In this document: piece after piece, positions 12,781 through 42,951 of the stretch | Layout: every line of letters starts with the position of its first letter | Position numbering within the stretch: position 1 is the first letter of the stretch | Assembly: GCA_964435235.1 (NCBI GenBank) | Contig: CAYSXZ010000057.1 | Location: 1 to 50,582 of the forward strand | Length of the DNA stretch: 50,582 nucleotides | DNA from: Candidatus Micrarchaeota archaeon | GTDB lineage: Archaea; Micrarchaeota; Micrarchaeia; Anstonellales; Bilamarchaeaceae | Direction: 5' to 3' | Made by a program: the position numbers and the translations under genes | The notes under the pieces: generated by a model | What the model was told of the DNA's origin: nothing | The model's input: only the letters and a program-made list of their open reading frames with translations | The model's database searches: none

Positions 12781-13602
12781 TTACACCAAAGTAAGAAGGT
12801 TCACAAAACAGCTAGCAGCATCCTCAAAAAACTCCTTTCCGAATTTATAAATCTTTGATACATCTGGCATCATAGATTTTCTTATGTCTGTTTCTATGCG
12901 TTCGAAATTTTTCTCAGAGCTAATATACTCAATTGTTTTTTTAACAACCTCTTTTCTCCAACCCTCAAAACCATACGTCTCTGCTTTTTTTCGAAGTTCC
13001 TTGGCGGTCGGTAACTCTTTGAGTACGTTTTTTATATAAAGGATATCGAATAAATCCGTTCCTTTTAATGAATCCCTTTTATCAATACGATCAAGCGTTG
13101 CGACGATCTTGTCTGCAAATATCTCGCGAGGTTGTTCTACAAGAAGCGGATAAAATTCACCCTTTGTGATTATCGGAAATAGAGATATCTGATCCCCAAT
13201 TTCTATTACACCGCGTATCTCTGAATTTTTCTTCCAATACTTTATTCTCTCTACTACTTTCAAATTTTTGTTGTTGTTTCTCGCTTTTTCTACATTGTAT
13301 TCCTTTTCTAGCACGTCACAAATAGCACTAACAACCCACGTAAGGTTTACTTTTTTATCTTTTAAGACAAAATCGAGATCATACGAATACCGCGGCGAAG
13401 AGTATATAAAATGAAGTGCATTTCCTCCTTGAAAGACAATATTCTCTGAAAGATTCTTCTCTTTTGCTATCCTAAACGTAGCGTCCCTTGCGAGTTCCTC
13501 CTTTTCTCTAAGTACATTTATCTTTTGCTTTAATTGATGGGTAGATATTTTCATCACACCTCTATTGCATTTCTCGATATTAATAATATTACATGTTGCC
13601 AT
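12781..13602 (-). CDS. Nucleotidyltransferase AbiEii/AbiGii-like (type IV toxin family, DUF1814)
   Basis: FQGGNALHFIYSSPRYSYDLDFV matches the GG(T/N)AL...R.S.D(L/I)DF core of AbiEii nucleotidyltransferases. An alternative start is at 13554. Confidence 0.65.
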   Translation of the reverse strand: MATCNIINIEKCNRGVMKISTHQLKQKINVLREKEELARDATFRIAKEKNLSENIVFQGGNALHFIYSSPRYSYDLDFVLKDKKVNLTWVVSAICDVLEKEYNVEKARNNNKNLKVVERIKYWKKNSEIRGVIEIGDQISLFPIITKGEFYPLLVEQPREIFADKIVATLDRIDKRDSLKGTDLFDILYIKNVLKELPTAKELRKKAETYGFEGWRKEVVKKTIEYISSEKNFERIETDIRKSMMPDVSKIYKFGKEFFEDAASCFVNLLTLV

Positions 13603-14960: not shown

Positions 14961-14993
14961 TTCAGTTGTCATTTTTTGTATAATTTCGAAAAA
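14961..14993. repeat. Direct repeat copy A flanking the Fic gene
   Basis: ttcagttgtcattttttgtataatttcgaaaaa. It recurs at 15961-15994 with a 1-nt indel. Confidence 0.9.
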
Positions 14994-15873
14994 GATATCT
15001 CTTGTACTCTTTAACGTATCTTTTGAAAAACCATTGTAAAAAGATTTCATCCATTTTTTTAATTTGTGCTCTTTCTAAAGCATTATAATAACCAACTCTT
15101 TTTTCATAGAGAATATTTAGCATTGGATATCCGTGTTTATGTAAAATAAAATTCATCATTAGCCTACTTATCCTTCCATTACCATCTGTAAATGGGTGTA
15201 TGGTCACAAATTTTAAATGTGCTAAAGCAGCTAATTCTACTGGATGCAATTTCTTCTTGTTTTTATTGTACCACCTAAAAAACTCTCTTAATAAAGGATA
15301 AATTTCAACTGGAAATGGTGGTGTAAATTTACTTCCTGATATAGCCACTTGATGTTCTCTAATCCTTCCAGCTATCTCTGGCTTGGATGCTTCAAACAAT
15401 TTTTTATGCCAATATAAAATAACTTGCAAAGTTAAGTCTTTCTCATATTGTAGCATTTCATAAAAGACCTTTTGATGTCCTTCTGCCTCTTTAACATCAT
15501 ACAAAGGTTTAAGCTTTGGTGTTATTCCTTTTTCCAGTAAATCTGCTGTTTCTCTTAACGTTAATTTTGAACCTTCTATTTTTTGTGTATCATAAGTAAA
15601 TCTGATTGAAAAAGTTTCAATTTCTTTTTCTCTTGCAGCTTTTGGTAATTGCTTAAACTCTTTAGAAAAATTTTTCTTTATTCTATCAAATAGCGGATAC
15701 CACTTCTCTCTATAAATTTCAGAAAGAAATTCTCTTTTTATTTCATCAATATTTTTTGGTAGTGTTTTGCCTATATATTTTTCCCTTTTCTCTACTTTTT
15801 TACCTTTTCTTATGGTGTGCTCTAAATAGTAATAAGTTTGTCTTCCTATAACTTTCTTTCTTATACTTACCAT
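14962..15873 (-). CDS. Fic/DOC family protein (AMPylase-type)
   Basis: HPFTDGNGRISRLMMNFIL is the canonical Fic motif HPFx(D/E)GNGRxxR. Start taken at the ATG at 15873 (MVSIRKK). An aaatttataaata TATA-like box lies about 25-35 nt upstream. Confidence 0.9.
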   Translation of the reverse strand: MVSIRKKVIGRQTYYYLEHTIRKGKKVEKREKYIGKTLPKNIDEIKREFLSEIYREKWYPLFDRIKKNFSKEFKQLPKAAREKEIETFSIRFTYDTQKIEGSKLTLRETADLLEKGITPKLKPLYDVKEAEGHQKVFYEMLQYEKDLTLQVILYWHKKLFEASKPEIAGRIREHQVAISGSKFTPPFPVEIYPLLREFFRWYNKNKKKLHPVELAALAHLKFVTIHPFTDGNGRISRLMMNFILHKHGYPMLNILYEKRVGYYNALERAQIKKMDEIFLQWFFKRYVKEYKRYLFRNYTKNDN

Positions 15874-15960
15874 AATAAAATTTACCCCTACATATTTATA
15901 AATTTTAGTATTTTTGATAAAAAGTAGAGATAAAGACAAAAGCTTTTTTAAGAATAAAAT

Positions 15961-15994
15961 TTCAGGTTGTCATTTTTTGTATAATTTCGAAAAA
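15961..15994. repeat. Direct repeat copy B flanking the Fic gene
   Basis: ttcaggttgtcattttttgtataatttcgaaaaa, matching 14961-14993. Confidence 0.9.
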
Positions 15995-16007
15995 ATAAAA
16001 GAAAAAA

Positions 16008-16229
16008 TCAGCAACCGCAGCTTCCTGAAAGAGATATACCGGCGACAAGTCCCATAGGATCTAGTGGTCCTTCGGACTCAGGCTTGTATTTCTCTAACTC
16101 TTTTGAAATTTTCTTTTCAGATGGCGTTTGTTGCTGAACCTTTGGTTTTTCCTTTACCATCTGGTTTGCTACAGTGCTTGCGTTCAAGGGCTTTCCATTA
16201 TTTCTGTTCATTCCTTTTGTATCTCTCAT
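16008..16229 (-). CDS. Small hypothetical protein with Cys-rich C-terminus (…GISLSGSCGC)
   Basis: 73-aa ORF with a 4-nt overlap with the upstream HTH ORF. No family recognised. Confidence 0.35.
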   Translation of the reverse strand: MRDTKGMNRNNGKPLNASTVANQMVKEKPKVQQQTPSEKKISKELEKYKPESEGPLDPMGLVAGISLSGSCGC

Positions 16230-16420
16230 ACAGCCTCACCTACTAATTCGCTGGAATTTACGACGCGCCATGCAGTCATTGTTGAGACGCCGGCAAAATC
16301 AGCAATCTTTCTAATTCCTAAATTACTGCTCCAATAAAGCTCCAAAATTAGATCCTTCTTTTTCTCATCAATTATTCTGGGTCTTCCTCTGTTATGGTCG
16401 CCACCTAAAAGAGAGACCAC
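16226..16420 (-). CDS. Small helix-turn-helix DNA-binding protein
   Basis: LGIRKIADFAGVSTMTAWRVV looks like a classic HTH (resolvase/transposase-type small HTH domain). 64 aa. Confidence 0.5.
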   Translation of the reverse strand: MVSLLGGDHNRGRPRIIDEKKKDLILELYWSSNLGIRKIADFAGVSTMTAWRVVNSSELVGEAV

Positions 16421-16510
16421 CTCTTTTCATTTTTCCTTGCCACATTTTTCACCTCCATTTTACTTCGTATATTATAATCAACATATTCTTATAAATCTAA
16501 CAAGAAAAAG

Positions 16511-16520
16511 TTTATAAATA
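16511..16520 (+). promoter_or_regulatory. Putative archaeal TATA box for tRNA-Arg
   Basis: aaaaag-tttataaata lies about 22-31 nt upstream of tRNA position 1. An identical 10-mer precedes the 23S leader. Confidence 0.55.
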
Positions 16521-16541
16521 AATGTATCAAAAGTTGCTCAC

Positions 16542-16628
16542 GCCCTCATAGTCTAGCCTGGATTTGCATATCAGAAAGGACACGGGCTTCCGGAGCCTGT
16601 GAGCTGGGTTCGAATCCCAGTGAGGGCG
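16542..16628 (+). tRNA. tRNA-Arg(CCG) with a 13-nt non-canonical intron in the D-loop
   Basis: Hand-folded. Acceptor gccctca/tgagggc plus discriminator g. D stem gtct/ggac. Anticodon stem cgggc/gcctg with loop ttCCGga. T arm ctggg-ttcgaat-cccag. It is 87 nt rather than about 74 because of the extra D-loop sequence. Confidence 0.85.
16564..16576 (+). other. Predicted 13-nt BHB intron in the tRNA-Arg D-loop
   Basis: Central helix ctgg (16558-61) / tcag (16571-74), with 3-nt bulges att and aaa. Cutting after the second bulge nt gives the D-arm GUCU-AGCCUGGAUA-GGAC. Confidence 0.6.
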
Positions 16629-16660
16629 TTTTAATTTTAAAATTAAATTGAAAAAATATT

Positions 16661-16673
16661 TTAGAAATTCCAA
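16661..16673. repeat. TTAGAAATTCCAA motif, copy 1
   Basis: Identical 13-mers at 16661, 17071 and 17904. Copies 1 and 2 share about 38 nt of extended similarity upstream of two small membrane-protein ORFs. Confidence 0.85.
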
Positions 16674-16696
16674 GATAGTATTAGAAAAGTGAGAAC

Positions 16697-17074
16697 ATGA
16701 AAATCAACTGGAAGGATTTCGGATTGGCTTTGGTTATTGGATTGATTGTGTGCATCAGCATCGCTTTAATTATTATAAGCGGTATCTTTGCCACTTTGAT
16801 GCTTGCCATTTTGATGATTGGCATCCCGCTTATGTTTTATTTCTTGAGGAATAAATCCGAAATATTAGAGGCAGGACTGATCTCTTTTCTTCTTGGAGTT
16901 ATTATATATTGGGTTGATTTATTGTTGTTCATTTCTATACCGAGAAATCCGAGAGATCCCATGATACTGTTGCCGAATCCGATCACTACGTCATTAAGTT
17001 TTGGAATCATAAGCACGATGATCGGTCTCATCATCTGGTTTGCAGTAAAAAAGTTAAAGTGGGAAAAATCTTAG
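16697..17074 (+). CDS. Small integral membrane protein
   Basis: 125 aa with four hydrophobic spans. Confidence 0.5.
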   Translation: MKINWKDFGLALVIGLIVCISIALIIISGIFATLMLAILMIGIPLMFYFLRNKSEILEAGLISFLLGVIIYWVDLLLFISIPRNPRDPMILLPNPITTSLSFGIISTMIGLIIWFAVKKLKWEKS

Positions 17075-17083
17075 AAATTCCAA
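17071..17083. repeat. TTAGAAATTCCAA motif, copy 2
   Basis: Overlaps the stop codon of ORF 16697-17074 and precedes ORF 17091-17312. Confidence 0.85.
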
Positions 17084-17090
17084 AAGACTG

Positions 17091-17312
17091 TTGGAAAATT
17101 TACTTGCTTTAATTATACAAATAGGTATGGCTTTCTCTGCGCTTTTTGTAGTGATATTTATAATAACGGGAATCGCCAGCTATTTCGGAGTCATGAAACT
17201 CATACTTTTCATCCCCTTTTTTCTCAGAATTTTTGAAATGCCGTGGATGATGGTCTTTACAAAATTGATCGCTTACACGCTTGCGGCTATTTTTGTGAAA
17301 ATTGGAAAATAA
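17091..17312 (+). CDS. Small integral membrane protein (TTG start)
   Basis: 73 aa with three hydrophobic spans. The start codon is non-ATG. Confidence 0.4.
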   Translation: MENLLALIIQIGMAFSALFVVIFIITGIASYFGVMKLILFIPFFLRIFEMPWMMVFTKLIAYTLAAIFVKIGK

Positions 17313-17395
17313 ATGGGCATTTGTTATTGCATAAATACCAATATAATAAACCAACCTTCCCTTTCATTTCCAGAATTTCAGTAATATATTATTAT

Positions 17396-17446
17396 AGTAA
17401 ACCTAATTTGTAAGCACGTGAACGGTTTCGGCAGTTACGGTTTACT
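17396..17446. repeat. Palindromic element 1 (agtaaacc ... ggtttact)
   Basis: 8-bp terminal inverted repeat around a 35-nt core containing cgtgaacgg. Preceded by atatattattata. Confidence 0.7.
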
Positions 17447-17553
17447 ACTGCAATATGATATGGAAAATCTGGAACACGCAATAAAGCTTGCACGGCAAAA
17501 GTCCCCGAAAAGATCGGAAAACGATCTGTTGGCATATATTATTATATCATATT

Positions 17554-17602
17554 AGTAAACCAAACCCGTGAAAACCGGCCCGTACGCGGCTTTTGGTTTA
17601 CT
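17554..17602. repeat. Palindromic element 2 (agtaaaccaaa ... tttggtttact)
   Basis: 11-bp terminal inverted repeat around a core containing cgtgaaaaccgg. Preceded by the same atatattattata box. Paralogous to element 1. Confidence 0.7.
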
Positions 17603-17849
17603 GATTAAGCAACCATTAGTTTTGCAGCATTAATACTGTGGGAGTTGCTACATAATTCTTACAGGTTTTTTCCGCGCGAAATACCGCAGTCAAAGCCCAG
17701 ACTATGCCGAAAAAAGAGAAACAGATATTTTATCGAGGTAAATTAAGAATGAATTCTGCTTCCATCTTCAAATTCATAACAATCCGCATCATATTCCTCT
17801 TCAAATCAAAATAAAATAGCATTATTAACCTTTATTACGAGAGAGAATT

Positions 17850-17888
17850 ATGAAAATCAGGAAAGCAACAAACAAAGATTTAGAATGA
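17850..17888 (+). pseudogene. Possible N-terminal remnant of a GNAT acetyltransferase gene
   Basis: atg aaa atc agg aaa gca aca aac aaa gat tta gaa tga = MKIRKATNKDLE*. This resembles typical GNAT N-termini. The reading frame ends 15 nt before motif copy 3. Confidence 0.3.
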
Positions 17889-17903
17889 TTATCTAAAACT
17901 CTT

Positions 17904-17916
17904 TTAGAAATTCCAA
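17904..17916. repeat. TTAGAAATTCCAA motif, copy 3
   Basis: Exact 13-mer between the GNAT-like remnant and the vapC stop. Confidence 0.85.
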
Positions 17917-17918
17917 AA

Positions 17919-18317
17919 CTATTTCAGTAGCTTGGCTTTTTCATAATATCTGAAATGGGGATCCTTTGAAACTATCAGGGCGTTTTCATTTTTTCCATGC
18001 ACCATAATCACGCAATCTGCCAGAGAAATTTCCTTGTCTTTCTTTTTTAAATCAGAATGTAGTTCTCCTGCTTTTTCTGCTACATCTTGATTTAAATCCA
18101 GTATCGTGCAATTTTGTTTTAGCACTCTTACAAACTTTGCCGGATCCTTGTTTGCTCTTCTTAATTTGCTGATTAATTCTGCCATAACTAACGCAGGTAT
18201 GAAATTTGATGTACCTTCGTCTATAAATAGTTCTTTTACTTCGCTACCGCTTTCGCTACCCAGAAAAAATTCTATTAGGGCAGATGTATCAAAGATTATG
18301 TTATTCTCTCCACTCAT
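17919..18317 (-). CDS. vapC: PIN-domain toxin VapC
   Basis: IIFDTSALIEFF N-terminus (first acidic residue) and conserved D/E later. 132 aa. Overlaps the upstream antitoxin ORF. Confidence 0.85.
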   Translation of the reverse strand: MSGENNIIFDTSALIEFFLGSESGSEVKELFIDEGTSNFIPALVMAELISKLRRANKDPAKFVRVLKQNCTILDLNQDVAEKAGELHSDLKKKDKEISLADCVIMVHGKNENALIVSKDPHFRYYEKAKLLK

Positions 18318-18555
18318 GCAGTCTATCCTCCCTGCAGCTCCAGCTTATTTTTGCACCCTTGATGGCTCCGAATATCGATAGAATCTCCTCTTTATTCTTC
18401 TTTTTCTTTTTATGAATGCTTGCCACTACTTTTTCGTTTGGGCCAAGACCTAATTCATCTCTGACTTCTGCAGGAATGAATATGGCAAGTGAATTGCCTA
18501 CTTGTTTTGTTACGGCTTCCAAAGTTACATTTTCCATATTATCACCATTTAACAT
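18301..18555 (-). CDS. vapB: AbrB/SpoVT-family antitoxin VapB
   Basis: VGNSLAIFIPAEVRDELGL is a SpoVT/AbrB swapped-hairpin motif. The start may be the ATG at 18537. The palindrome aacatgtt lies between a TATA-like box and the start. Confidence 0.8.
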   Translation of the reverse strand: MLNGDNMENVTLEAVTKQVGNSLAIFIPAEVRDELGLGPNEKVVASIHKKKKKNKEEILSIFGAIKGAKISWSCREDRLHEWRE

Positions 18556-18890
18556 GTATAATTAAACATGTTAAATTTATAAAGCTTTCTGCTAGATAGT
18601 AATATAGCCAACAAAAAGTACCCCGTGAGAAGCGTTTCAAAAGAGCTGGCTAATGCAATTACTGGATAGCGCAAATGAAATCATGGAAAGGACGACCATC
18701 GCTATTCCGAATATAAATCATTCCAATAACAAAAACCTTCTTTTCCACTCATCTCGGGTTTAGGCGGTAAAAGCTGCAGGGGAGAAAAAAACAGGATTGC
18801 TATATTTTTCTTCATATCTATCTACTCTTTACATCGTCGTCGTTGATTACGCGTCCGCTTGTCGCGCGTTTCATGCTTGAGCTCTTTCCC

Positions 18891-19538
18891 CTATTTTTCT
18901 TGCTTTCCCTTTTCCGTTTCCGACTTCTTTTCCTCTTCTTTTGCCACAATTGTACCTATTTGCTCTACAATTTCCTCCTCTGATATGAACTGGTAATTCG
19001 CCTTTCCGAATTTTTCATAGAACTTCTTCTGGTCTTCAAGCTTGGACGGTGTTTCAAGTATCTTTTCTATTCCCATCCATGTCATATACCATCCTAAAGG
19101 TACAAGAAGGATTTCCGGGAGTTTTAAAATGAAATCAGAATTGTGATTATACGTTGCAAGGAGTATAGTGGTCGATAGAATAACAAAACCTATGACTAGA
19201 TATATTCCGCCCTTCTCCTTCTGCTTCTTCAGCTCGTAATCTATACTCTTGAGTTGCATTGTAAAATAATCCTTCAGCCTTTTTTTGATGAGGGCCTCGG
19301 TCTTTGCGGAGCGGAGTGTAGCCGGTAGGGAGAATCTGACTTCGAAATTACCTTTTTTGTTCTCGATGTAGCGCTTTTGGACTTCCTTAAGAAAATCATC
19401 AGAGAGAAGCCTGGAGGAATATGGAGAAGGGTCGAAGTCGGAAAAGATATCGTCGTAGTTGTCCAGCGCAATGTGAACAAGATTGATGAACGCAGCAGGC
19501 TTCATTTCTTCTGCTGCTACTGCTTTCTTTATCTCCAT
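18891..19538 (-). CDS. Membrane hypothetical protein
   Basis: Likely start MEIKKAV at 19538. Two central TM spans. Divergent from padR. Confidence 0.5.
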   Translation of the reverse strand: MEIKKAVAAEEMKPAAFINLVHIALDNYDDIFSDFDPSPYSSRLLSDDFLKEVQKRYIENKKGNFEVRFSLPATLRSAKTEALIKKRLKDYFTMQLKSIDYELKKQKEKGGIYLVIGFVILSTTILLATYNHNSDFILKLPEILLVPLGWYMTWMGIEKILETPSKLEDQKKFYEKFGKANYQFISEEEIVEQIGTIVAKEEEKKSETEKGKQEK

Positions 19539-24993: not shown

Positions 24994-25112
24994 TAATATT
25001 CTCTAATATTGCCTGCAAACTGCTATTCCTATGAGCGTAGGATAACTACGCGATGGAAATACTAATAGAGCATTTGCTCTCTCCCTGTTTTTCAGGGAGT
25101 TAGAAGAGTGTG

Positions 25113-25185
25113 AAGAGATAACAGAAATATGGAAGATACTCATGAGAAGTCTTTGGTGATAATCATCAAGGACAGTGTAATGGGT
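25113..25185 (+). other. 5' strand of the pre-23S rRNA processing stem
   Basis: aagagataacagaaa..ggaagatac pairs with 28564-28590 (gtacttcc..ttttctgttatcttt). cagtgtaatgggt pairs with acccattactg at 28546-28556. Confidence 0.75.
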
Positions 25186-26078
25186 GGACAAAATTGCGAA
25201 ATTTTGTCCGCATTGGAAATCATCAAATTTTCAATGCAACTAGATATGCAAACCACCTAGAGGATGGCTAGGCTTATGCCCGCACGGTCACGCGGCAAGC
25301 TGCGATAAGCCTTGGGTAGCCGCAAGCAGGCTTTGAACCAAGGGTCTGACTGCGCACAGTAATGTGCAGCAACTCCCCGAAATGAAGCGTCTTAGTAGGG
25401 GAAGGAAAAGAAACCAATAGGGATCCGGTTAGTAACAGAGAGTGAAAGCCGGAGAGATCAAGCTGAATTCCTCTGCAGTAATGCAGAGGTAGATGTGGCG
25501 GGGTGCAACCTCCTTCTCATCCGAAGTTGCTTGGAACAGCGCACCTTAGCGGGTGATAGTCCCGTAGGAGAAGGAAGGAGGTGCTAACCAAGAAGAGTAG
25601 TGTCTCTTGGATAAGAGGCATGAAGATGGGTGTATCAACATCCAATTCTAAATATGGGGCATAAGACCGATAGCGAAACAGTAGCGCGAGCGAACGCCGA
25701 AAAGTACCCCGGAAGGGGTGTGAAAAGATCCTAAAACTAGGTGGTGACAGCATGATACGGCACGAAAGGGCAGGGCTGCAGAAGCGACCTCTGGTAACGG
25801 AGGAAGCGATGCAGTTTAACCAGTGTCGTGTCTTTCTTCTCGAAGCAAGAGCCAGGGAGTTTGTGGGCGTGGCGAGGCGAAAGCCGAAGCGAAAGCGAGT
25901 GTCCGCAGCGCAGCAATGCGTGAGGGACGTCGTGGTAACTCGCGACCAGTCACTCTCACAAGACCCGAAGCCATTGTGATCTACGCCCGAGCAGGACGAA
26001 GCCAACCTGACGGTTGGTGGAGGTCCGCAACTAGTGGTAGTATATTCTCCTTAGGTGACTTGGGTGTAGGGGTGATAG

Positions 26079-26123
26079 ACAACCTTTGTCCAGGTTTTTA
26101 GGAAGGGACAAAAGTTGGTCAGT
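26079..26123 (+). other. BHB mini-intron I1 (45 nt, loop AGGUUUUUAGGAAG), 23S domain II
   Basis: Central helix tgat (26073-76) / gtca (26118-21). Bulges aga and gtt. 12-position stem caacctttgtcc/ggacaaaagttg (one C-A mismatch). Removal leaves GGGGUGAUAG|UCCUGUCGAAC. Confidence 0.75.
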
Positions 26124-26970
26124 TCCTGTCGAACGTGGCAATAGCGGGTTCCCCTCGAAATGTGTCTCAGCACAGCGTCTCTGGAGAATGATGTGGAGGT
26201 AGAGCACTGATTAGACAGAGCGGTACCGAAAGGTATCACTGTCTTTTCAAACTCCGAATGCCACATCTTCGTAGAAGGAGGCAGTGGGGTTGCCGGAGTA
26301 AGTTTGGCGACCTATTCGTGAACGAACGTACGTAAGGTTAAGGACCCTAAATTCTGACTAAGTGTTAATCGCAAAGGAGTCTCCATTCGAAAACAACCGG
26401 GAGGTAGGCTTAGAAGCAGCCATCCTCTAAACAACGCGTAATAGCGGACCGGTCGAGAGTGCAGACTCTGAAGATTCACGGGACTAAGTCAGATTCCGAT
26501 ACCTTACCCAGGCCAAAAGCCTTGGACTAGGGGGGCGAACGGGAAGCGTAGAAGTTAGGCCGTGAGGTCTAATGGAGCGACCTGTTATGAATATCCTGGT
26601 GTTAGTAGCAGCATATCTGGATGAGAATTCCAGACACCTTATAGAGCAAGGTTTCCTCAGCCACGTTCTTCAGCTGAGGGTTAGGCGATCCTAAGAACTT
26701 AGGTAACTCCGAAAGTTCGAAATTAGGGAAGCCGGTTAATATTCCGGCCCTGCAGAGGTAGGTGCGGCAACGCGTGCCATTCTCTGACTCCTTTGGATAG
26801 GTGAAGCGGCTACGGCCGTCTGAGGAGAGTAAACTCGTGGAGTCTCATTATGAGGAGAAGCGGGCGAAACTCTAAGGGGAAACTTCATCGAATCCAGGGG
26901 ACCATGAAAAACGAGAATGGATCGATCCTCTGCAATCGTACCGAGAACTAGTACAGGTGCTCTAGCTGAA

Positions 26971-27017
26971 ATCCAAAGAACAGGTGTTCTTTGTCTGTCC
27001 TGTTTTTTGAACAGTAC
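26971..27017 (+). other. BHB mini-intron (47 nt, different loop UGUUCUUUGUCUGU)
   Basis: Central helix gctg (26965-68) / cagt (27012-15). Bulges aaa and aca. 13-position stem. Removal gives ACAGGUGCUCUAGCUGAA|AAGGCUAAGGUG, the same length as the reference ACAGGUGGUCAGGUAGAGAAUACCAAGGCG. Confidence 0.65.
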
Positions 27018-27239
27018 AAGGCTAAGGTGTGGCAGGATAACTCAGACAAGGGAACTCGGCAAGTTAGCCCCGTATCTTAGGTAGAAGGGGTGCCTTCGCA
27101 TCGGTATGCGGAGGTCGCAGTGACAAGGGGGGAGCGACTGTTTACCAAAAACACAGGTCATCGCAAAGCCGAAAGGCTGTGTATGATGGCTGACGCCTGC
27201 TCACTGCCAGTACCTGAACGTCCGTTTCAAAGCTTTGAA

Positions 27240-27270
27240 AGCGGGTGCTTTCAAAATTGCCCGCCAAGGC
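27240..27270 (+). other. Candidate 31-nt BHB intron near the helix-68 apex
   Basis: Central helix tttg (27234-37) / caag (27265-68). Bulges aaa and gcg. Inner helix gcgggt/tgcccgc. The mature sequence cannot be validated from memory. Confidence 0.3.
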
Positions 27271-27323
27271 GGACAACGGAAAGAAGGGCTGGTAAAGAGC
27301 GGGGGTAACTCTGACCCTCTTAA

Positions 27324-27360
27324 CATTCGGCTTCCTAGCTACTAGCCGAATGAAGAGAGA
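27324..27360 (+). other. 37-nt hairpin insertion splitting the universal CUUAA|GGUAGCG block (E. coli 1928/1929)
   Basis: ccctcttaa-[cattcggct tcctagctact agccgaatg aagagaga]-ggtagcg. Helix tctt/gaga, with a 2x2 internal loop in place of a clean 5' bulge (relaxed BHB). Confidence 0.6.
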
Positions 27361-27729
27361 GGTAGCGTAATACCTCGCCGCTTAATTGGCGGCTTGCATG
27401 AATGGCGTAACGACTCCCCCACTGTCCCTGTCTGGGACCTGGTGAACTCACTGTCCGGTGAAGATGCCGGAGACTTCCAGAGGGAAACGAAGACTCCATG
27501 GAGCTTTACCATAGCCTAATGTTGTGGTGCGAGGTTTGCTACCAAGAGTAAGTGGGAGCCATCGAAGCAATTCTTTCGGGAATTGTGGAGGCGAAAGTGT
27601 TACACCACTTAGTAGATCTTGCATTGCTTACCCGCAAGGGAACAGCGTTAGGTGGATGGTTCGGCTGGGGCGGTACGCCCTCGAGAAAGGAACAAGGGCG
27701 CCCAATGCTCTGCTCAGTCCGGTCAGAAA

Positions 27730-27772
27730 AAACTTTTCACAAGGTTTTTAGGAAATGGGAAAAGTTTTTGAA
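27730..27772 (+). other. BHB mini-intron I2 (43 nt, loop AAGGUUUUUAGGAAAU)
   Basis: Central helix caga (27724-27) / tttg (27767-70). Bulges aaa and aat. Removal gives UCCGGUCAGAAA|UCGGAUG, matching the archaeal GGGUCAGAAAUCC-type hairpin (about E. coli 2305-2311 by my count). Confidence 0.7.
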
Positions 27773-27940
27773 TCGGATGTAGAGGGTGAAAGACAAATGC
27801 AGGGCTGACTGTGTTCCTAAAAGCGTGGAACGCAGAGACGAAAGTCGGGCTTAGCGAACCTTGATATCCTTTTGATGGGGATTCAAGCTGTCAGACAAGC
27901 TACCCTGGAGGTAACAGGCTCGTCGCGGGCGAGAGTACAC

Positions 27941-28012
27941 AAAACTTTGCTTATGTTTTCTTAGGGCAAAGTTTTATCAAAGGTCCTTAGAGTAAAACTC
28001 AAGACCGTACAA
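27941..28012 (+). other. About 72-nt two-hairpin insertion at the helix-89 apex (E. coli 2477/2478)
   Basis: Helix gtac (27935-38) / gtac (28007-10) with bulges aca and aaa. Removal gives CGAGAGUACAC|AUCGAC versus E. coli CAAGAGUUCAUAUCGAC. The inner helix is not contiguous, so the boundaries are tentative. Confidence 0.5.
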
Positions 28013-28067
28013 ATCGACCCCGCGGTTTGGTACATCGCTGTCGGCTTGGGACATCCTGGTGGTGCAG

Positions 28068-28110
28068 ACGTTTTTTGCCAGATTTTTAGGAAGGGCAAAA
28101 ATCGGCATAA
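28068..28110 (+). other. BHB mini-intron I3 (43 nt, loop AGAUUUUUAGGAAG), helix-91 apex
   Basis: Central helix gtgc (28062-65) / gcat (28105-08). Bulges aga and aag. Removal gives CCUGGUGGUGCAG|GAGCCACCAAGG, 25 nt as in E. coli CCUGGGGCUGAAGUAGGUCCCAAGG. Confidence 0.75.
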
Positions 28111-28131
28111 GAGCCACCAAGGGTTGGGTTG

Positions 28132-28176
28132 ACATGAATTAGTCAGGTTTTTAGGAAGGGCTAATTCATGGCCCAA
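28132..28176 (+). other. BHB mini-intron I4 (45 nt, loop AGGUUUUUAGGAAG) inside the A-loop (helix 92)
   Basis: Central helix gggt (28126-29) / gccc (28171-74). Bulges tga and aat. 12-bp stem. Removal gives GGGUUGGGUUG|UUCAUCCAUUAAAG, which restores the UGUUC loop. Confidence 0.8.
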
Positions 28177-28282
28177 TTCATCCATTAAAGTCCCACATGA
28201 GCTGGGTTCAGTACGTCGCGAGACAGTACGGTAGTATCTTCTGGAAGCGTTGCCTCTTGAGAGGAAGGATCCTTGAGTACGA

Positions 28283-28325
28283 ACAGATTTTGTCAGGTTT
28301 TTAGGAAGGACAAAATCTGGTATAA
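28283..28325 (+). other. BHB mini-intron I5 (43 nt, loop AGGUUUUUAGGAAG) inside the sarcin-ricin loop (helix 95)
   Basis: Central helix gtac (28277-80) / gtat (28320-23). Bulges gaa and aag. 11-bp stem. Removal gives AGUACGA|GAGGAAC. Confidence 0.8.
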
Positions 28326-28545
28326 GAGGAACGGGGATCCGGCGCCTCTGGTTTACCGGTTGTGAATTGCACCGCCGGGCAGCTACGCGCCATGTCGATA
28401 AGACCTGAAAGCATCTAAGGTCGAAGCGACTCTCAAGACGAGGAGGCAAATGCCGCGGATAGCAGATCCGTTTGATAGGACCGGGGTGTAAGTGGTAAGG
28501 GAAACCGAGCCATTCAGCCTGCGGTTACTAAAGGCTTATTTCGAA

Positions 28546-28590
28546 ACCCATTACTGACCGTTGGGTACTTCCTTTTCTGTTATCTTTTTG
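28546..28590 (+). other. 3' strand of the pre-23S rRNA processing stem
   Basis: Complementary to 25113-25185 (see the 5' strand entry). Confidence 0.75.
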
Positions 28591-28711
28591 ACATTCTTCG
28601 ATTTTCTAATTTTCCGAAGTCAGTAAGTCAGTGAAGCCGATTACAATTACTATTTTAAATCTAACTTTTGAAAAGTAGTCATCTTTTCTTAGAACTTAGA
28701 GGGTAGATAAT

Positions 28712-31123
28712 ATGAAAAATATAATGTGGTTTAAAGAGCTAACAAAAAATAATTTGCTCGAGGCAGGAGGAAAGGGCGCGAATCTTGGTGAAATGTATGG
28801 GGCCGGTTTTCCTGTCCCTCCAGGATTTGTAGTAACAAGCGGTGCATATTTCAAACATCTTGATGCAAATAATCTCCGCGAGCCGATAACAAAGATTCTT
28901 ACTGGTCTTGATGTTAATGACCCAGAAGCATTGAACAGAGCATCAGAAGAAATAAAAAAACTCATAAAGGAAGGACAGATTCCAAAGGATGTTTATGACG
29001 ATATAATAAATGCTTACAGAAAATTAAACGAGATGGCTGGAAGACAAGTTTATGTCGCGGTAAGGTCGAGTGCAACGGCAGAAGACTTGCCTACTGCAAG
29101 CTTTGCTGGTCAGCAATCTACCTATCTAAATATTATTGGAGAGAAAGAAGTCGTGAATGCAGTTAAAGATTGTTGGGCATCGCTATTTGAACCGAGAGCC
29201 ATATTTTACAGAGTACAAAACAAGTTTGAACACATGAGAGTAGGGCTTGCCGCCGTTGTGCAGATGATGATCCAGAGCGAAAAGGCCGGCGTTGTCTTTA
29301 CAGTCGATCCGTTAACCCAAAATAAGGACATTATTTCTATAGAATCTGCATACGGACTCGGAGAGGTTGTTGTCAGTGGTTCCGTTACCCCAGACACCTA
29401 TAGAGTGAATAAAAATAACTTCGAGATAATCGATAAAAAGATAGCAAAACAACCATGGATGCTTGTAAAGGTAGAAGGAAAAAACAGGAAGGTTGAGATA
29501 AAGGACGAGATGCAAGGAAACCAAAAACTATCCGACACAGAAATAAAGGACCTAGCGAAGGTATCTGCAAGAATAGAAGAGTATTACGGCTTTCCACAGG
29601 ATATAGAATACGCGTTCGAAAAGGGGAATCTTTACATTGTACAATCAAGACCAATAACTACATTGAGTAAAAAAGCAGAGATACAGGAAAAGAAGCCTGA
29701 AGCCGTAGGGACGGCGGAGGAACGGAAAAGCGAGGAAACGAAAGCAAAAGGCGAAGGCAAGGTAAGCGAGACAAAGATCCTGTTGCAAGGGCTTGGAGCA
29801 TCCCCAGGTATCGGCATCGGTCCTGTCAAGATAATAAAGTCAGCACAGGAAATAAAAAGAATGGAAAGCGGAGACGTTCTAGTAACTGAGATGACAACGC
29901 CTGATTTTGTACCTGCGATGAAAAGGGCGGTTGCAATTGTAACAGACACTGGCGGAATGACTAGTCATGCAGCAATAGTTTCAAGAGAGCTTGGCGTTCC
30001 ATGTATTGTAGGCACACAAAAAGCAACAAGTATTTTGAAGGAAGGCCAGACCATAAGCGTTGATGGAACGCATGGTATTGTTTACGAAGGAGTGCTTGCG
30101 CAACCGGTAAAGAAGGAAGAGAAGGCCGCAGTAGTAGGCGGAGTTATATATCCACCGGCGACTGGAACTAAGATTTATGTAAATCTTGCTGATGTTGATC
30201 AAGCAGAAAGAATAGCTGCTATGCCTGTAGACGGTGTGGGTCTTCTTAGGGCCGAATTTATGATAGCAGATATAGGAACCCATCCAAAAAAATTGATAGA
30301 AGAGGGAAGACAGGAAGAGTTTATAGATAAGCTAGCAGCTGGCCTGAGAAGATTTGCGGCTGCTTTTTATCCACGACCAGTAATATATAGAGCAACTGAT
30401 TTCAAAACAAACGAATATAAAAATCTTAAAGGTGGGGAAAAGTACGAGCCCCACGAAGAAAATCCAATGATGGGATATCGCGGTGCGGCAAGATATATAA
30501 AAGAGCCAGAAGTATTTAAGATGGAATTAAAGGCAATAAAAAAGGTGAGAGACGAATACAATCTTAGAAACTTATGGCTTATGATCCCATTTGTAAGAAA
30601 GATCGGCGAACTACGCGCTATAAAACAAGCACTATATGAAGTTGGTATATACCGCACAAAGGATTTCAAACTCTGGATAATGATAGAAGTTCCAAGCACC
30701 GTATTCCTTATCGACAGGTTCTGCGAGGAAGGGATAGACGGGGTTTCTATAGGGAGCAACGACCTAACACAGCTAATACTAGGTATAGATAGGGATAACG
30801 CAACAATGGCGAAGGACTTTGACGAGAGGAACGAAGCTGTTCTGCGCGCTTTGCAAAAGGTAATAACTACATGCAATAAATATGGAGTAACCTGTTCGCT
30901 ATGCGGGCAGGCACCTAGTGTTTATCCAGAATTTGCTGAAAAGCTAGTTGAATATGGCATAACGAGCATTTCTGTTAATCCTGATGCGATAGAAAGAACA
31001 AGATGGATAGTACAAAGTGCAGAGCAGAAGATAATCTTAAAGAGACTTGCAAGACTTACTTCGCAAGGACCAACTGAGGAAAAATTAACTACACTCCAAG
31101 CAACATGGACAGGGGACGATTAG
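28712..31123 (+). CDS. ppsA: Phosphoenolpyruvate synthase (pyruvate, water dikinase)
   Basis: GGKGANLGEM ATP-grasp N-terminus, phosphohistidine motif TGGMTSHAAIVSRELGVPCIVG, and the C-terminal PEP-utilising GSNDLTQ motif. Confidence 0.95.
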   Translation: MKNIMWFKELTKNNLLEAGGKGANLGEMYGAGFPVPPGFVVTSGAYFKHLDANNLREPITKILTGLDVNDPEALNRASEEIKKLIKEGQIPKDVYDDIINAYRKLNEMAGRQVYVAVRSSATAEDLPTASFAGQQSTYLNIIGEKEVVNAVKDCWASLFEPRAIFYRVQNKFEHMRVGLAAVVQMMIQSEKAGVVFTVDPLTQNKDIISIESAYGLGEVVVSGSVTPDTYRVNKNNFEIIDKKIAKQPWMLVKVEGKNRKVEIKDEMQGNQKLSDTEIKDLAKVSARIEEYYGFPQDIEYAFEKGNLYIVQSRPITTLSKKAEIQEKKPEAVGTAEERKSEETKAKGEGKVSETKILLQGLGASPGIGIGPVKIIKSAQEIKRMESGDVLVTEMTTPDFVPAMKRAVAIVTDTGGMTSHAAIVSRELGVPCIVGTQKATSILKEGQTISVDGTHGIVYEGVLAQPVKKEEKAAVVGGVIYPPATGTKIYVNLADVDQAERIAAMPVDGVGLLRAEFMIADIGTHPKKLIEEGRQEEFIDKLAAGLRRFAAAFYPRPVIYRATDFKTNEYKNLKGGEKYEPHEENPMMGYRGAARYIKEPEVFKMELKAIKKVRDEYNLRNLWLMIPFVRKIGELRAIKQALYEVGIYRTKDFKLWIMIEVPSTVFLIDRFCEEGIDGVSIGSNDLTQLILGIDRDNATMAKDFDERNEAVLRALQKVITTCNKYGVTCSLCGQAPSVYPEFAEKLVEYGITSISVNPDAIERTRWIVQSAEQKIILKRLARLTSQGPTEEKLTTLQATWTGDD

Positions 31124-41928: not shown

Positions 41929-42951
41929 ATGTCGATGGGGGGCGTGAACAACAAAAAACTTATGCTGCATTATTCAACGGCAAATTTAACAAAGAAAGAA
42001 AGAGGAATAGCGCAGGCTATTCTTCCTCTTCTTGAAGAAAAACTTGAGCATTCGGAACGAGTTAAGAAGAGCGCAGAAGAATTTCAAAAGATAGCAAAGA
42101 AGATTACGCGTTTCAGACTTTTTGAAACCCTTCGTAAGATGGGGTGGGAACCTAAAGATGCTTCTAAGACTGCACTTAATAGAGTAGTTCCAGACCTTAT
42201 ACCGAAGCGTACCATGGAGGAGGCGTGGGAGTTAGTTACGAAGAATATGGGTCTTGTAGACGCCGCAATAACTTACTCGAAATTGAATGATTATTTGAAA
42301 TGGGATAGTGAATATGTGCGAAGCATAATAATAGAACAGTTGTTCATGACGGCTCTTTACTGGGATAAAGAAAAAGGTGCGTTTTCTACGTATTTCTTTT
42401 CAACGATGAAAAAGTGCAGAAACCACCTAAGAGAGAAAGCGAGTCTGATACGATTGCCGATGCATGTAATCGGAAAACTGAATAGGATGGATATTGAAAA
42501 ACATAAAGAGCCAAACATCCGATCAAGCGAGCTTGCCAAACGCATGAATGTAAAGCCAGAAAAATTAAATGATCTAACGAAGCTGAAAAAAATACGTTAT
42601 GCAAAGGTATTAAATCTAAGCAGGCTTTTATATTCTGAGACAGATGAAAGCGATGATAAGATCTCGATGAGATTTAACTTAATAAAAGAAAACGAGCCAG
42701 ACTTAACCAATGCAATCGATCAAAAGAACCTAAAAAGAATTATCGAAAGAGTATTGAAGACTCTTGAACCACGCGAAGCAAAGGTTTTGAGGATGCGCTA
42801 CGATTTAGATGATGAAGGTGGAAAAACACTGGAAAAATGCGGTAATGAGTTTGGCGTTACTAGAGAAAGAGTAAGACAAATAGAAACTTGCGCACTTAAA
42901 AAACTCCGCCATTCGGCCTACTCTAAGATTCTCAGAGAATTTATTCTTTGA
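41929..42951 (+). CDS. Bacterial-type RNA polymerase sigma-70 family protein
   Basis: Region 2/3.0-like FSTYFFSTMKKCRNHLREKASLIRLPMHVIGKLNRM (compare [30 protein letters not shown]). Region 4.2-like LEPREAKVLRMRYDLDDEGGKTLEKCGNEFGVTRERVRQIETCALKKLRH. Confidence 0.85.
   Translation: MSMGGVNNKKLMLHYSTANLTKKERGIAQAILPLLEEKLEHSERVKKSAEEFQKIAKKITRFRLFETLRKMGWEPKDASKTALNRVVPDLIPKRTMEEAWELVTKNMGLVDAAITYSKLNDYLKWDSEYVRSIIIEQLFMTALYWDKEKGAFSTYFFSTMKKCRNHLREKASLIRLPMHVIGKLNRMDIEKHKEPNIRSSELAKRMNVKPEKLNDLTKLKKIRYAKVLNLSRLLYSETDESDDKISMRFNLIKENEPDLTNAIDQKNLKRIIERVLKTLEPREAKVLRMRYDLDDEGGKTLEKCGNEFGVTRERVRQIETCALKKLRHSAYSKILREFIL

Follow-up and report, generated by a model that had tools for sequence, protein, structure and literature searches.

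The window, by which we mean the whole stretch of 50,582 nt that was analysed, carries an archaeal 23S (LSU) rRNA gene at 25236-28549 on the forward strand. This gene matches Rfam family RF02540 with 2260.8 bits over the full model (model positions 1-2987); it is 3314 nt long as encoded and 2893 nt long without the nine inserts described below. Just 3′ of the 23S gene lies a gene for PEP synthase (28712-31123), for which the best named relatives are from Candidatus Micrarchaeota and Bilamarchaeaceae, and which is also present on three further public contigs. The remaining genes of the window (coding among others for MCM, LeuRS, aRF1, Hjc and ribosomal proteins) are archaeal. By sequence affiliation, the 23S rRNA gene comes from a member of the Micrarchaeota, a phylum of DPANN archaea.

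When the whole window was scanned at Rfam gathering thresholds, LSU rRNA was the only family matched, and an additional E-value scan of the region 15900-19000 gave no match. Genes for an AbiEii-type nucleotidyltransferase toxin, a Fic/DOC protein and a PIN-domain protein (12781-13602, 14962-15939, and 17919-18317) are clustered near a tRNA gene and may represent a small toxin-antitoxin or defence island. An ORF of 340 aa at 41929-42951 encodes a Sigma-70 region 4 domain of the bacterial type (E = 9e-17), an unusual finding in an archaeal genome.

The insert in the sarcin-ricin loop

The GAGA tetraloop of the sarcin-ricin loop (SRL) is universally conserved and contacts the translational GTPases. 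It is among the most conserved and the most fragile elements of the ribosome; a single alpha-sarcin cut or a single ricin depurination in the SRL kills translation. In the window, the SRL reads CCUUGAGUACGA (ending at 28282), followed by the 43 nt ACAGAUUUUGUCAGGUUUUUAGGAAGGACAAAAUCUGGUAUAA (28283-28325, forward strand), and continues with GAGGAACGGGGAUCC (from 28326). In the Rfam alignment, 49 bases stand against 6 of the model at this place (model position 2757). After removal of the inserts the product was aligned to E. coli rrlH, and AGUACGAGAGGACC was found to correspond to rrlH 2654-2667. In the intron-free gene, the final exon base is the equivalent of E. coli A2660 and the following base that of G2661. 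By sequence alone, a junction at G2659|A2660 yields the identical product, because the intron begins with A; we chose A2660|G2661 because this is the junction selected by the BHB register. The preliminary description had placed the split of the SRL at this same bond, and both the rrlH alignment and the BHB register agree with its coordinates and numbering. This SRL insert in H95 is designated I9 in the following.

Excision of the insert gives AGUACGAGAGGAAC. The proposal that removal restores the SRL exactly could be confirmed by comparison with relatives, whose 23S genes were found by synteny with PEP synthase. The uninterrupted sequence AGTACGAGAGGAAC occurs in six related Micrarchaeota 23S genes (L008-L010, L011, L019, L022), and the SRL of these more distant relatives is GAGTACGAGAGGAACGG, without interruption. 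Two of them (L008 and L011) were aligned in full and have a gap of exactly 43 nt relative to the window, with near-identical flanks. The insert is retained in a sister strain (L007), for which PEP synthase is 95% and the rRNA exons are 98.1% identical to those of the window, as well as in a further sample of that strain (L016). In both, there is a single substitution in the insert (GGAC to GGGC), by which a U-A pair of the hairpin becomes U.G. As relatives with matching flanks have an empty site, the SRL insert is, on this comparison, a recent and precise insertion in an otherwise normal SRL.

The minimum free energy (MFE) fold of the region 28268-28340 has -21.8 kcal/mol (z = -3.25), and none of 200 shuffled sequences was as stable. 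In this fold, and also in the geometry test, the exon strand GUAC (28277-28280, corresponding to G2655-C2658) pairs with the intron strand GUAU (28320-28323), forming a central helix of three Watson-Crick pairs and one G.U. On its 5′ side, this helix is flanked by the bulge GAA (28281-28283), which is unpaired in the MFE and the centroid folds and has its predicted cut after A28282. An inner helix of 11 bp (28284-28294 with 28309-28319) closes the 14-nt loop AGGUUUUUAGGAAG (28295-28308), and the central helix stacks directly on this hairpin along the 3′ strand. The corresponding 3′ bulge would be AAG (28324-28326), with a predicted cut after A28325. In archaea, each bulge of a BHB is cut after its second base, which leads to AGUACGA joined to GAGGAAC as the predicted product.

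A BHB with a GUAC/GUAU helix and with GAA and AAG as bulges had been proposed for this site. The central helix and the GAA bulge were found as proposed, while the 3′ side is less regular. In the MFE fold it consists of a 2x2 internal loop (G28275 A28276 / A28324 A28325) closed by UCCUU/GAGGA; AAG forms a bulge only when it is closed by non-canonical pairs of the SRL stem. In the canonical register the outer helix h is non-Watson-Crick and starts with A.A and G.G, and it is either the UCCUU/GAGGA helix or the native H95 stem that could serve as an alternative outer helix. As modelled, the SRL insert is a relaxed BHB with its 3′ splice site outside of a cleanly closed 3-nt bulge, so that a broad-specificity endonuclease would be needed.

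Nine mini-inserts and a paralogous family

The SRL insert is not an isolated case. Sectional alignments to the Rfam model revealed nine inserts of 37-72 nt in the 23S gene, among them the SRL insert, and five of the nine, again including that in the SRL, are paralogues. To place the junctions, we used the Rfam alignment together with empty sites in relatives. No empty site exists in close relatives for I6, and its junction was placed by using also the BHB register and the agreement with the E. coli length.

All nine inserts are on the forward strand of the window, and their sites are given here in E. coli numbering (Ec). I1 (26079-26123, 45 nt, Ec 784|785) has the helix UGAU/GUCA and the bulges AGA/GUU, belongs to the I9 family and is absent from L007 and L008. 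I2 (26971-27017, 47 nt, Ec 1633|1634), with the helix GCUG/CAGU, is absent from L007 and L008 and also from the Atabeyarchaeia genes L004 and L005, which are described below. I3 (27228-27273, 46 nt) is located in a hairpin loop near Ec 1878; its exact junction is uncertain by up to 3 nt, and the geometry test gave no canonical BHB register for it. I4 (27323-27359, 37 nt, Ec 1927|1928) is just 3′ of H69 and has the helix CUCU/AGAG with the bulges UAA/AGA. I5 (27730-27772, 43 nt, Ec 2311|2312), with the helix CAGA/UUUG, is a member of the I9 family that is restricted to the window's strain. I6 (27941-28012), at 72 nt the one with two hairpins, interrupts the H89 loop at Ec 2477|2478 and has the helix GUAC/GUAC. 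Two more members of the I9 family are I7 (28068-28110, 43 nt) in the H91 loop (Ec 2532|2533; helix GUGC/GCAU, bulges AGA/AAG) and I8 (28132-28176, 45 nt) in the A loop (H92; Ec G2553|U2554; helix GGGU/GCCC).

In eight of the nine inserts, I3 being the exception, the exon positions -5 to -2 pair with the intron positions -5 to -2. The background of this register test is 0.0205, and the chance of obtaining at least eight of nine is about 3e-11, with ambiguous placements allowed for. The eight exon tetramers are UGAU, GCUG, CUCU, CAGA, GUAC, GUGC, GGGU and GUAC, and for each the matching complement occurs in the respective intron; at the sequence level, this matching works as covariation for the central helix.

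Further features were noticed elsewhere in the window. A 54-nt insert with two hairpins (25186-25239) is located in the pre-23S 5′ leader and the 5′ end of the gene. L007 and L008 lack it (..AATGGGT|CTAGATATGC..), and it does not fit any canonical BHB register. In its first hairpin (GGACAAAAUUGCGAAAUUUUGUCC), the duplex of the I1/I9 inner helix recurs with the loop at the other end; about 0.01 matches of this kind are expected by chance. The 23S gene is flanked by a processing stem (25094-25144 with 28559-28607, and 25177-25185 with 28546-28554). A canonical BHB within this stem was considered and rejected, as the bulges are 3x1 and 1 nt rather than 3-4-3. At 16541-16629, ARAGORN predicts a tRNA of unknown type that was missed by Rfam; by eye it is tRNA-Arg(CCG), with a D-loop insert of about 13 nt (UUGCAUAUCAGAA) flanked by a CUGG/UCAG helix. 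This is a bulge-helix-loop mini-intron as described for ARMAN-2.

The five paralogues I1, I5, I7, I8 and I9 align end to end, the identity per column averaging 75%, and their loop is near-invariant. No other copy of the family core motif was found within the 50-kb window. In the alignment of the inner helices, 93% of the cells pair, and seven of nine pairs have been changed on both sides. None of 500 shuffles reaches the observed inner-helix pairing or covariation score, and structures that were slid by 1-3 columns pair in 36-62%.

The comparison with the sister strain L007 revealed that the set of introns is not stable. Three inserts (I1, I2 and I5) are missing in that strain, and two of these (I1 and I5) belong to the I9 family. 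Conversely, L007 has a 46-nt paralogue of I3 (AAAGCTTTGAAATCGGGCGATTTCAAAATTTGCCCGC...) that is absent from the window; it is found in another hairpin loop (a GAAA tetraloop), after the position matching 27171 of the window. I3 and this paralogue point to a second family of mobile mini-introns, for which the canonical BHB register does not fit. Of the shared introns, I8 and I9 have a single base difference each between the two strains, while only 15 of 37 positions (41%) are identical at the I4 site and 26 of 41 (63%) at the I7 site, in exons that are 98.1% identical. This divergence points to introns having been replaced at the I4 and I7 sites, or to gene conversion among copies of the family. 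As intron content differs between such close strains, introns must be turned over rapidly, and the conservation of the exons in spite of the differing intron content shows that the gene is under selection.

Judging from the sites occupied in the two strains, at least two families of ORF-less mini-introns have moved between sites. The five-member family that includes I9 has, on the same grounds, spread recently in hairpin loops of this rRNA and without a homing endonuclease, because two members are missing from the strain whose exons are 98% identical. With 43 nt, the SRL insert is too short for a homing endonuclease ORF, nor can any of the other mini-introns encode one. Our guess is that the family was spread by reverse splicing or gene conversion. 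A more far-reaching scenario, which we regard as speculative and unlikely, is that of a self-propagating mini-intron family that enters hairpin loops of rRNA at the RNA level, by a reversed endonuclease/ligase reaction or an equivalent of it, and in which each copy acquires 4 nt that are complementary to the exon upstream of it. The conserved 14-nt loop would then be recognised by a trans-acting factor, and the GTPase centre, A loop, H89 and H91 would be disabled until late splicing, which would constitute an assembly checkpoint, be this a by-product or a function. The locus represents a natural experiment on how BHB introns of archaea can spread when no homing endonuclease is involved, with five paralogues at five sites, two of them gained or lost between strains with 98% identical exons, and with each exon-pairing tetramer retuned to its site.

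A degenerate 24-mer of the family core, used to look for a viral or plasmid origin, had no match in IMG/VR. The 23S sequence UUCCUAAAAGC at 27814-27824 is complementary to the conserved loop of the introns (GUUUUUAGGAA) over 11 bp, one of them G.U. It was rejected as a base-pairing target of this loop, as equally good matches are no more frequent in the window than expected by chance.

Other types of mobile elements were encountered in the same group of organisms. The 23S gene of L007 has large inserts of 159 nt and 675 nt, and those of L008-L010 have a large insert with a LAGLIDADG ORF (about 730 nt in L008); all of these are absent from the window. Inteins are found in PEP synthase, GlmS and aRF1 of relatives (P0108, L019). 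The clade formed by the window strain and its relatives is rich in mobile elements.

A probable spliced intron and its alternatives

We consider it likely, with a probability of about 0.88, that 28283-28325 is an archaeal BHB intron of the Micrarchaeota 23S gene which is spliced by proteins and which is one of nine such introns and a member of a five-member paralogous family. In the precursor RNA, the exon segment GUAC (G2655-C2658) would pair with GUAU of the intron, and the splice sites would be presented in the 3-nt bulges GA|A and AA|G on both sides of a 4-bp helix that is stacked on an 11-bp hairpin. The tRNA/rRNA splicing endonuclease EndA, for which a broad-specificity type (epsilon2) is known in this phylum, would cut both sites. 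An RtcB-type ligase would then join the exons, so that the normal SRL is obtained, and the intron would probably be circularised. We infer cleavage, ligation and circularisation, as well as the enzymes involved, from the established processing of BHB introns in archaea. An organism with introns in the SRL, the A loop, H89 and H91 would be fully dependent on precise protein-catalysed splicing for working ribosomes.

Among the alternatives, the one that survives best is that the insert is excised and the exons are not rejoined, which would result in fragmented 23S rRNA as is the case for the RNase III-processed intervening sequences of bacteria. Fragmented rRNAs do exist in nature, and no ligase is encoded in the window; neither EndA nor RtcB was among its proteins when 47 ORFs from the 50-kb window were subjected to Pfam scans. 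We nevertheless consider fragmentation improbable. A break within the GAGA tetraloop resembles the damage inflicted by alpha-sarcin, which inactivates ribosomes, and nine breaks, including those in the A loop and H89, would divide the catalytic core into ten fragments. In addition, the structure is that of a BHB, the products of which are normal RtcB substrates in archaea, and the Rfam gathering scan found only LSU rRNA in the window.

The 43-nt hairpin might instead remain part of the mature rRNA and expand helix 95, since a stable hairpin within a hairpin loop extends the helix coaxially. This is very improbable, as the GAGA tetraloop that contacts the translational GTPases would be destroyed. 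Moreover, the 3′ end of the insert is complementary to G2655-C2658, and the bulged-G motif would be unfolded by this pairing. Eight independent sites share one BHB register, and close relatives with identical flanks are devoid of the insert.

Nine interruptions might also resemble decay, in which case this copy of the rRNA gene would be dead and the ribosome would be supplied by an intact copy elsewhere. There is hardly a case for this view when the exons, which score 2260 bits against the archaeal LSU model, are compared to the introns: the exons are 98.1% identical to those of the sister strain, while some introns at the same site have only 41-63% identity. The interruptions are precise insertions, eight of them with the BHB register, rather than random indels, and SRL introns have been kept in the sister strain and in two species of Atabeyarchaeia. 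A spurious ORF of 103 aa that spans the I6-I9 junctions of the spliced sequence was compared to 5.8 billion proteins, and the best match (85%) is, by its sequence, from a relative; this translated search, which provides weak evidence, detected neither a spliced cDNA nor an intron-less copy with the exons of the same strain.

That the insert is an assembly or chimera artefact can practically be dismissed: rRNA genes from metagenomes are often misassembled, and a Logan contig which spans the final 402 nt of the 23S gene breaks within the gene, but two JGI metagenome contigs from different samples, assembled separately, carry the whole rRNA gene with 100% identity to the window over 3800 nt, and the SRL insert recurs in two more samples, those of the sister strain (L007, L016). 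It is the occurrence of the identical gene on independent contigs, together with the Logan contig over the final 402 nt, which argues that the SRL insert is not artificial.

Several other types of element were considered and rejected. Self-splicing introns of group I or II require a catalytic core of hundreds of nucleotides, compared to the 43 nt found here, and the Rfam scan of the window matched only LSU rRNA. A mobile intron with its own homing endonuclease can be rejected as 43 nt leave no room for an ORF; in the relatives L008-L010, the LAGLIDADG ORF is located elsewhere in the 23S gene. Intervening sequences of the bacterial type occur in the variable stems H25 and H45, whereas the host here is an archaeon and the affected site a functional loop that is invariant; the ends of the insert form a BHB and not a plain long duplex. 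An rRNA expansion segment, which would be expected in a variable region and shared by relatives, does not apply to a universally conserved GAGA tetraloop, and the insert is absent from relatives with identical flanks.

Known systems and a second probable intron in the same tetraloop

The SRL intron is of a known kind (BHB), but its site is apparently unreported. No mention of an SRL intron was found in the literature searched, and we know of none in the SRL tetraloop from published site catalogues. The SRL site, the density of mini-introns in the functional core and the intragenic paralogous family appear to be new.

In tRNA genes of Thermoproteales, similar short BHB introns are found at different sites and are thus paralogous ("intron transposition"). 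The introns described here resemble these in that similar sequences occur at different sites, which implies spread without a homing endonuclease. They differ in being located in hairpin loops of a single rRNA gene, with an exon-pairing segment of 4 nt that differs in each copy.

BHB introns in rRNA of Thermoproteales and Desulfurococcales have long been known, and short ones (as in Staphylothermus and Thermoproteales) which consist only of a hairpin and lack an ORF have been catalogued for 16S rRNA (PMC4496867). As is the case for the rRNA introns from Desulfurococcus, Pyrobaculum, Aeropyrum and Staphylothermus, those of the window occupy highly conserved functional sites, have a BHB at their boundaries and are removed by proteins, the latter being deduced in our case. 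What differs is that the host is a DPANN archaeon, that the SRL, from which no intron is known to us in the literature, is among the sites, and that nine introns of 37-72 nt, five of them paralogous, are present in one gene.

For LSU rRNA of Micrarchaeota, BHB introns are shown in a figure by Nawrocki et al. 2018 (PMC6125680), beside group I introns at 1923, 1931 and 2593. While phylum and gene are the same, group I introns are the subject of that paper; the part of it available to us contains neither the SRL site nor families of mini-introns, and the window has no group I match.

The epsilon2 endonuclease of Micrarchaeum ARMAN-2, where 56% of the tRNA genes are interrupted, cleaves strict as well as relaxed BHBs (PMC3239211); this enzyme and tRNA introns with a relaxed BHB are also covered in PMC12397907. 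ARMAN-2 belongs to the same phylum, and relaxed cleavage is what the weak 3′ side of the SRL intron would need. However, that enzyme was assayed with tRNA substrates only (PMC3239211).

We performed a pattern scan for interrupted SRLs, covering 185,579 species (one genome each) and JGI metagenome contigs and demanding exact flanks and an insert of 25-55 nt. Matches in rRNA were found only in this Micrarchaeota lineage and in Atabeyarchaeia (Asgard), with the proviso that other variants could be missed by this pattern. The other matches (L006, L012, L017) are chance matches outside of rRNA. The Atabeyarchaeia insert occurs in two closed genomes (CP147779, CP147780) and on three metagenome contigs. 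Like I9, it is a mini-intron in the same GAGA tetraloop with a 4-bp central helix, and its removal restores AGUACGAGAGGAAC as well. However, it has only 34 nt and is unrelated in sequence to I9, with a perfect UACG/CGUA central helix and the 3-nt bulges AGA and AGA. By our reading of the sequences, the junction is at G2661|A2662, which is the bond cut by alpha-sarcin and lies one bond 3′ of the junction in Micrarchaeota. The three variants of the Atabeyarchaeia insert differ only at positions that are predicted to be unpaired.

Because length, sequence and junction are all different, we consider the Atabeyarchaeia intron an independent gain. The main interest of the present case lies in the evidence for a recent endonuclease-free spread of introns and in the fact that the SRL tetraloop was invaded twice, independently. 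In DPANN and Asgard genomes, genes of this kind cause annotation based on rRNA, primers and also phylogenetic placement to fail.

The two Atabeyarchaeia species share about 70% amino-acid identity (PMC11291895), and the presence of the SRL intron in both of them argues for its compatibility with long-term viability. The paper on these genomes describes extreme loads of tRNA introns, and there is no mention of 23S rRNA or of rRNA introns (PMC11291895). Additional inserts occur in the 23S genes of these organisms: one of 62-63 nt is common to Atabeyarchaeia-1 (L004, CP147779) and Atabeyarchaeia-2 (L005), while Atabeyarchaeia-1 has extra mini-inserts that Atabeyarchaeia-2 lacks, with lengths of 33, 32 and 106 nt, as well as one located at the I4 site.
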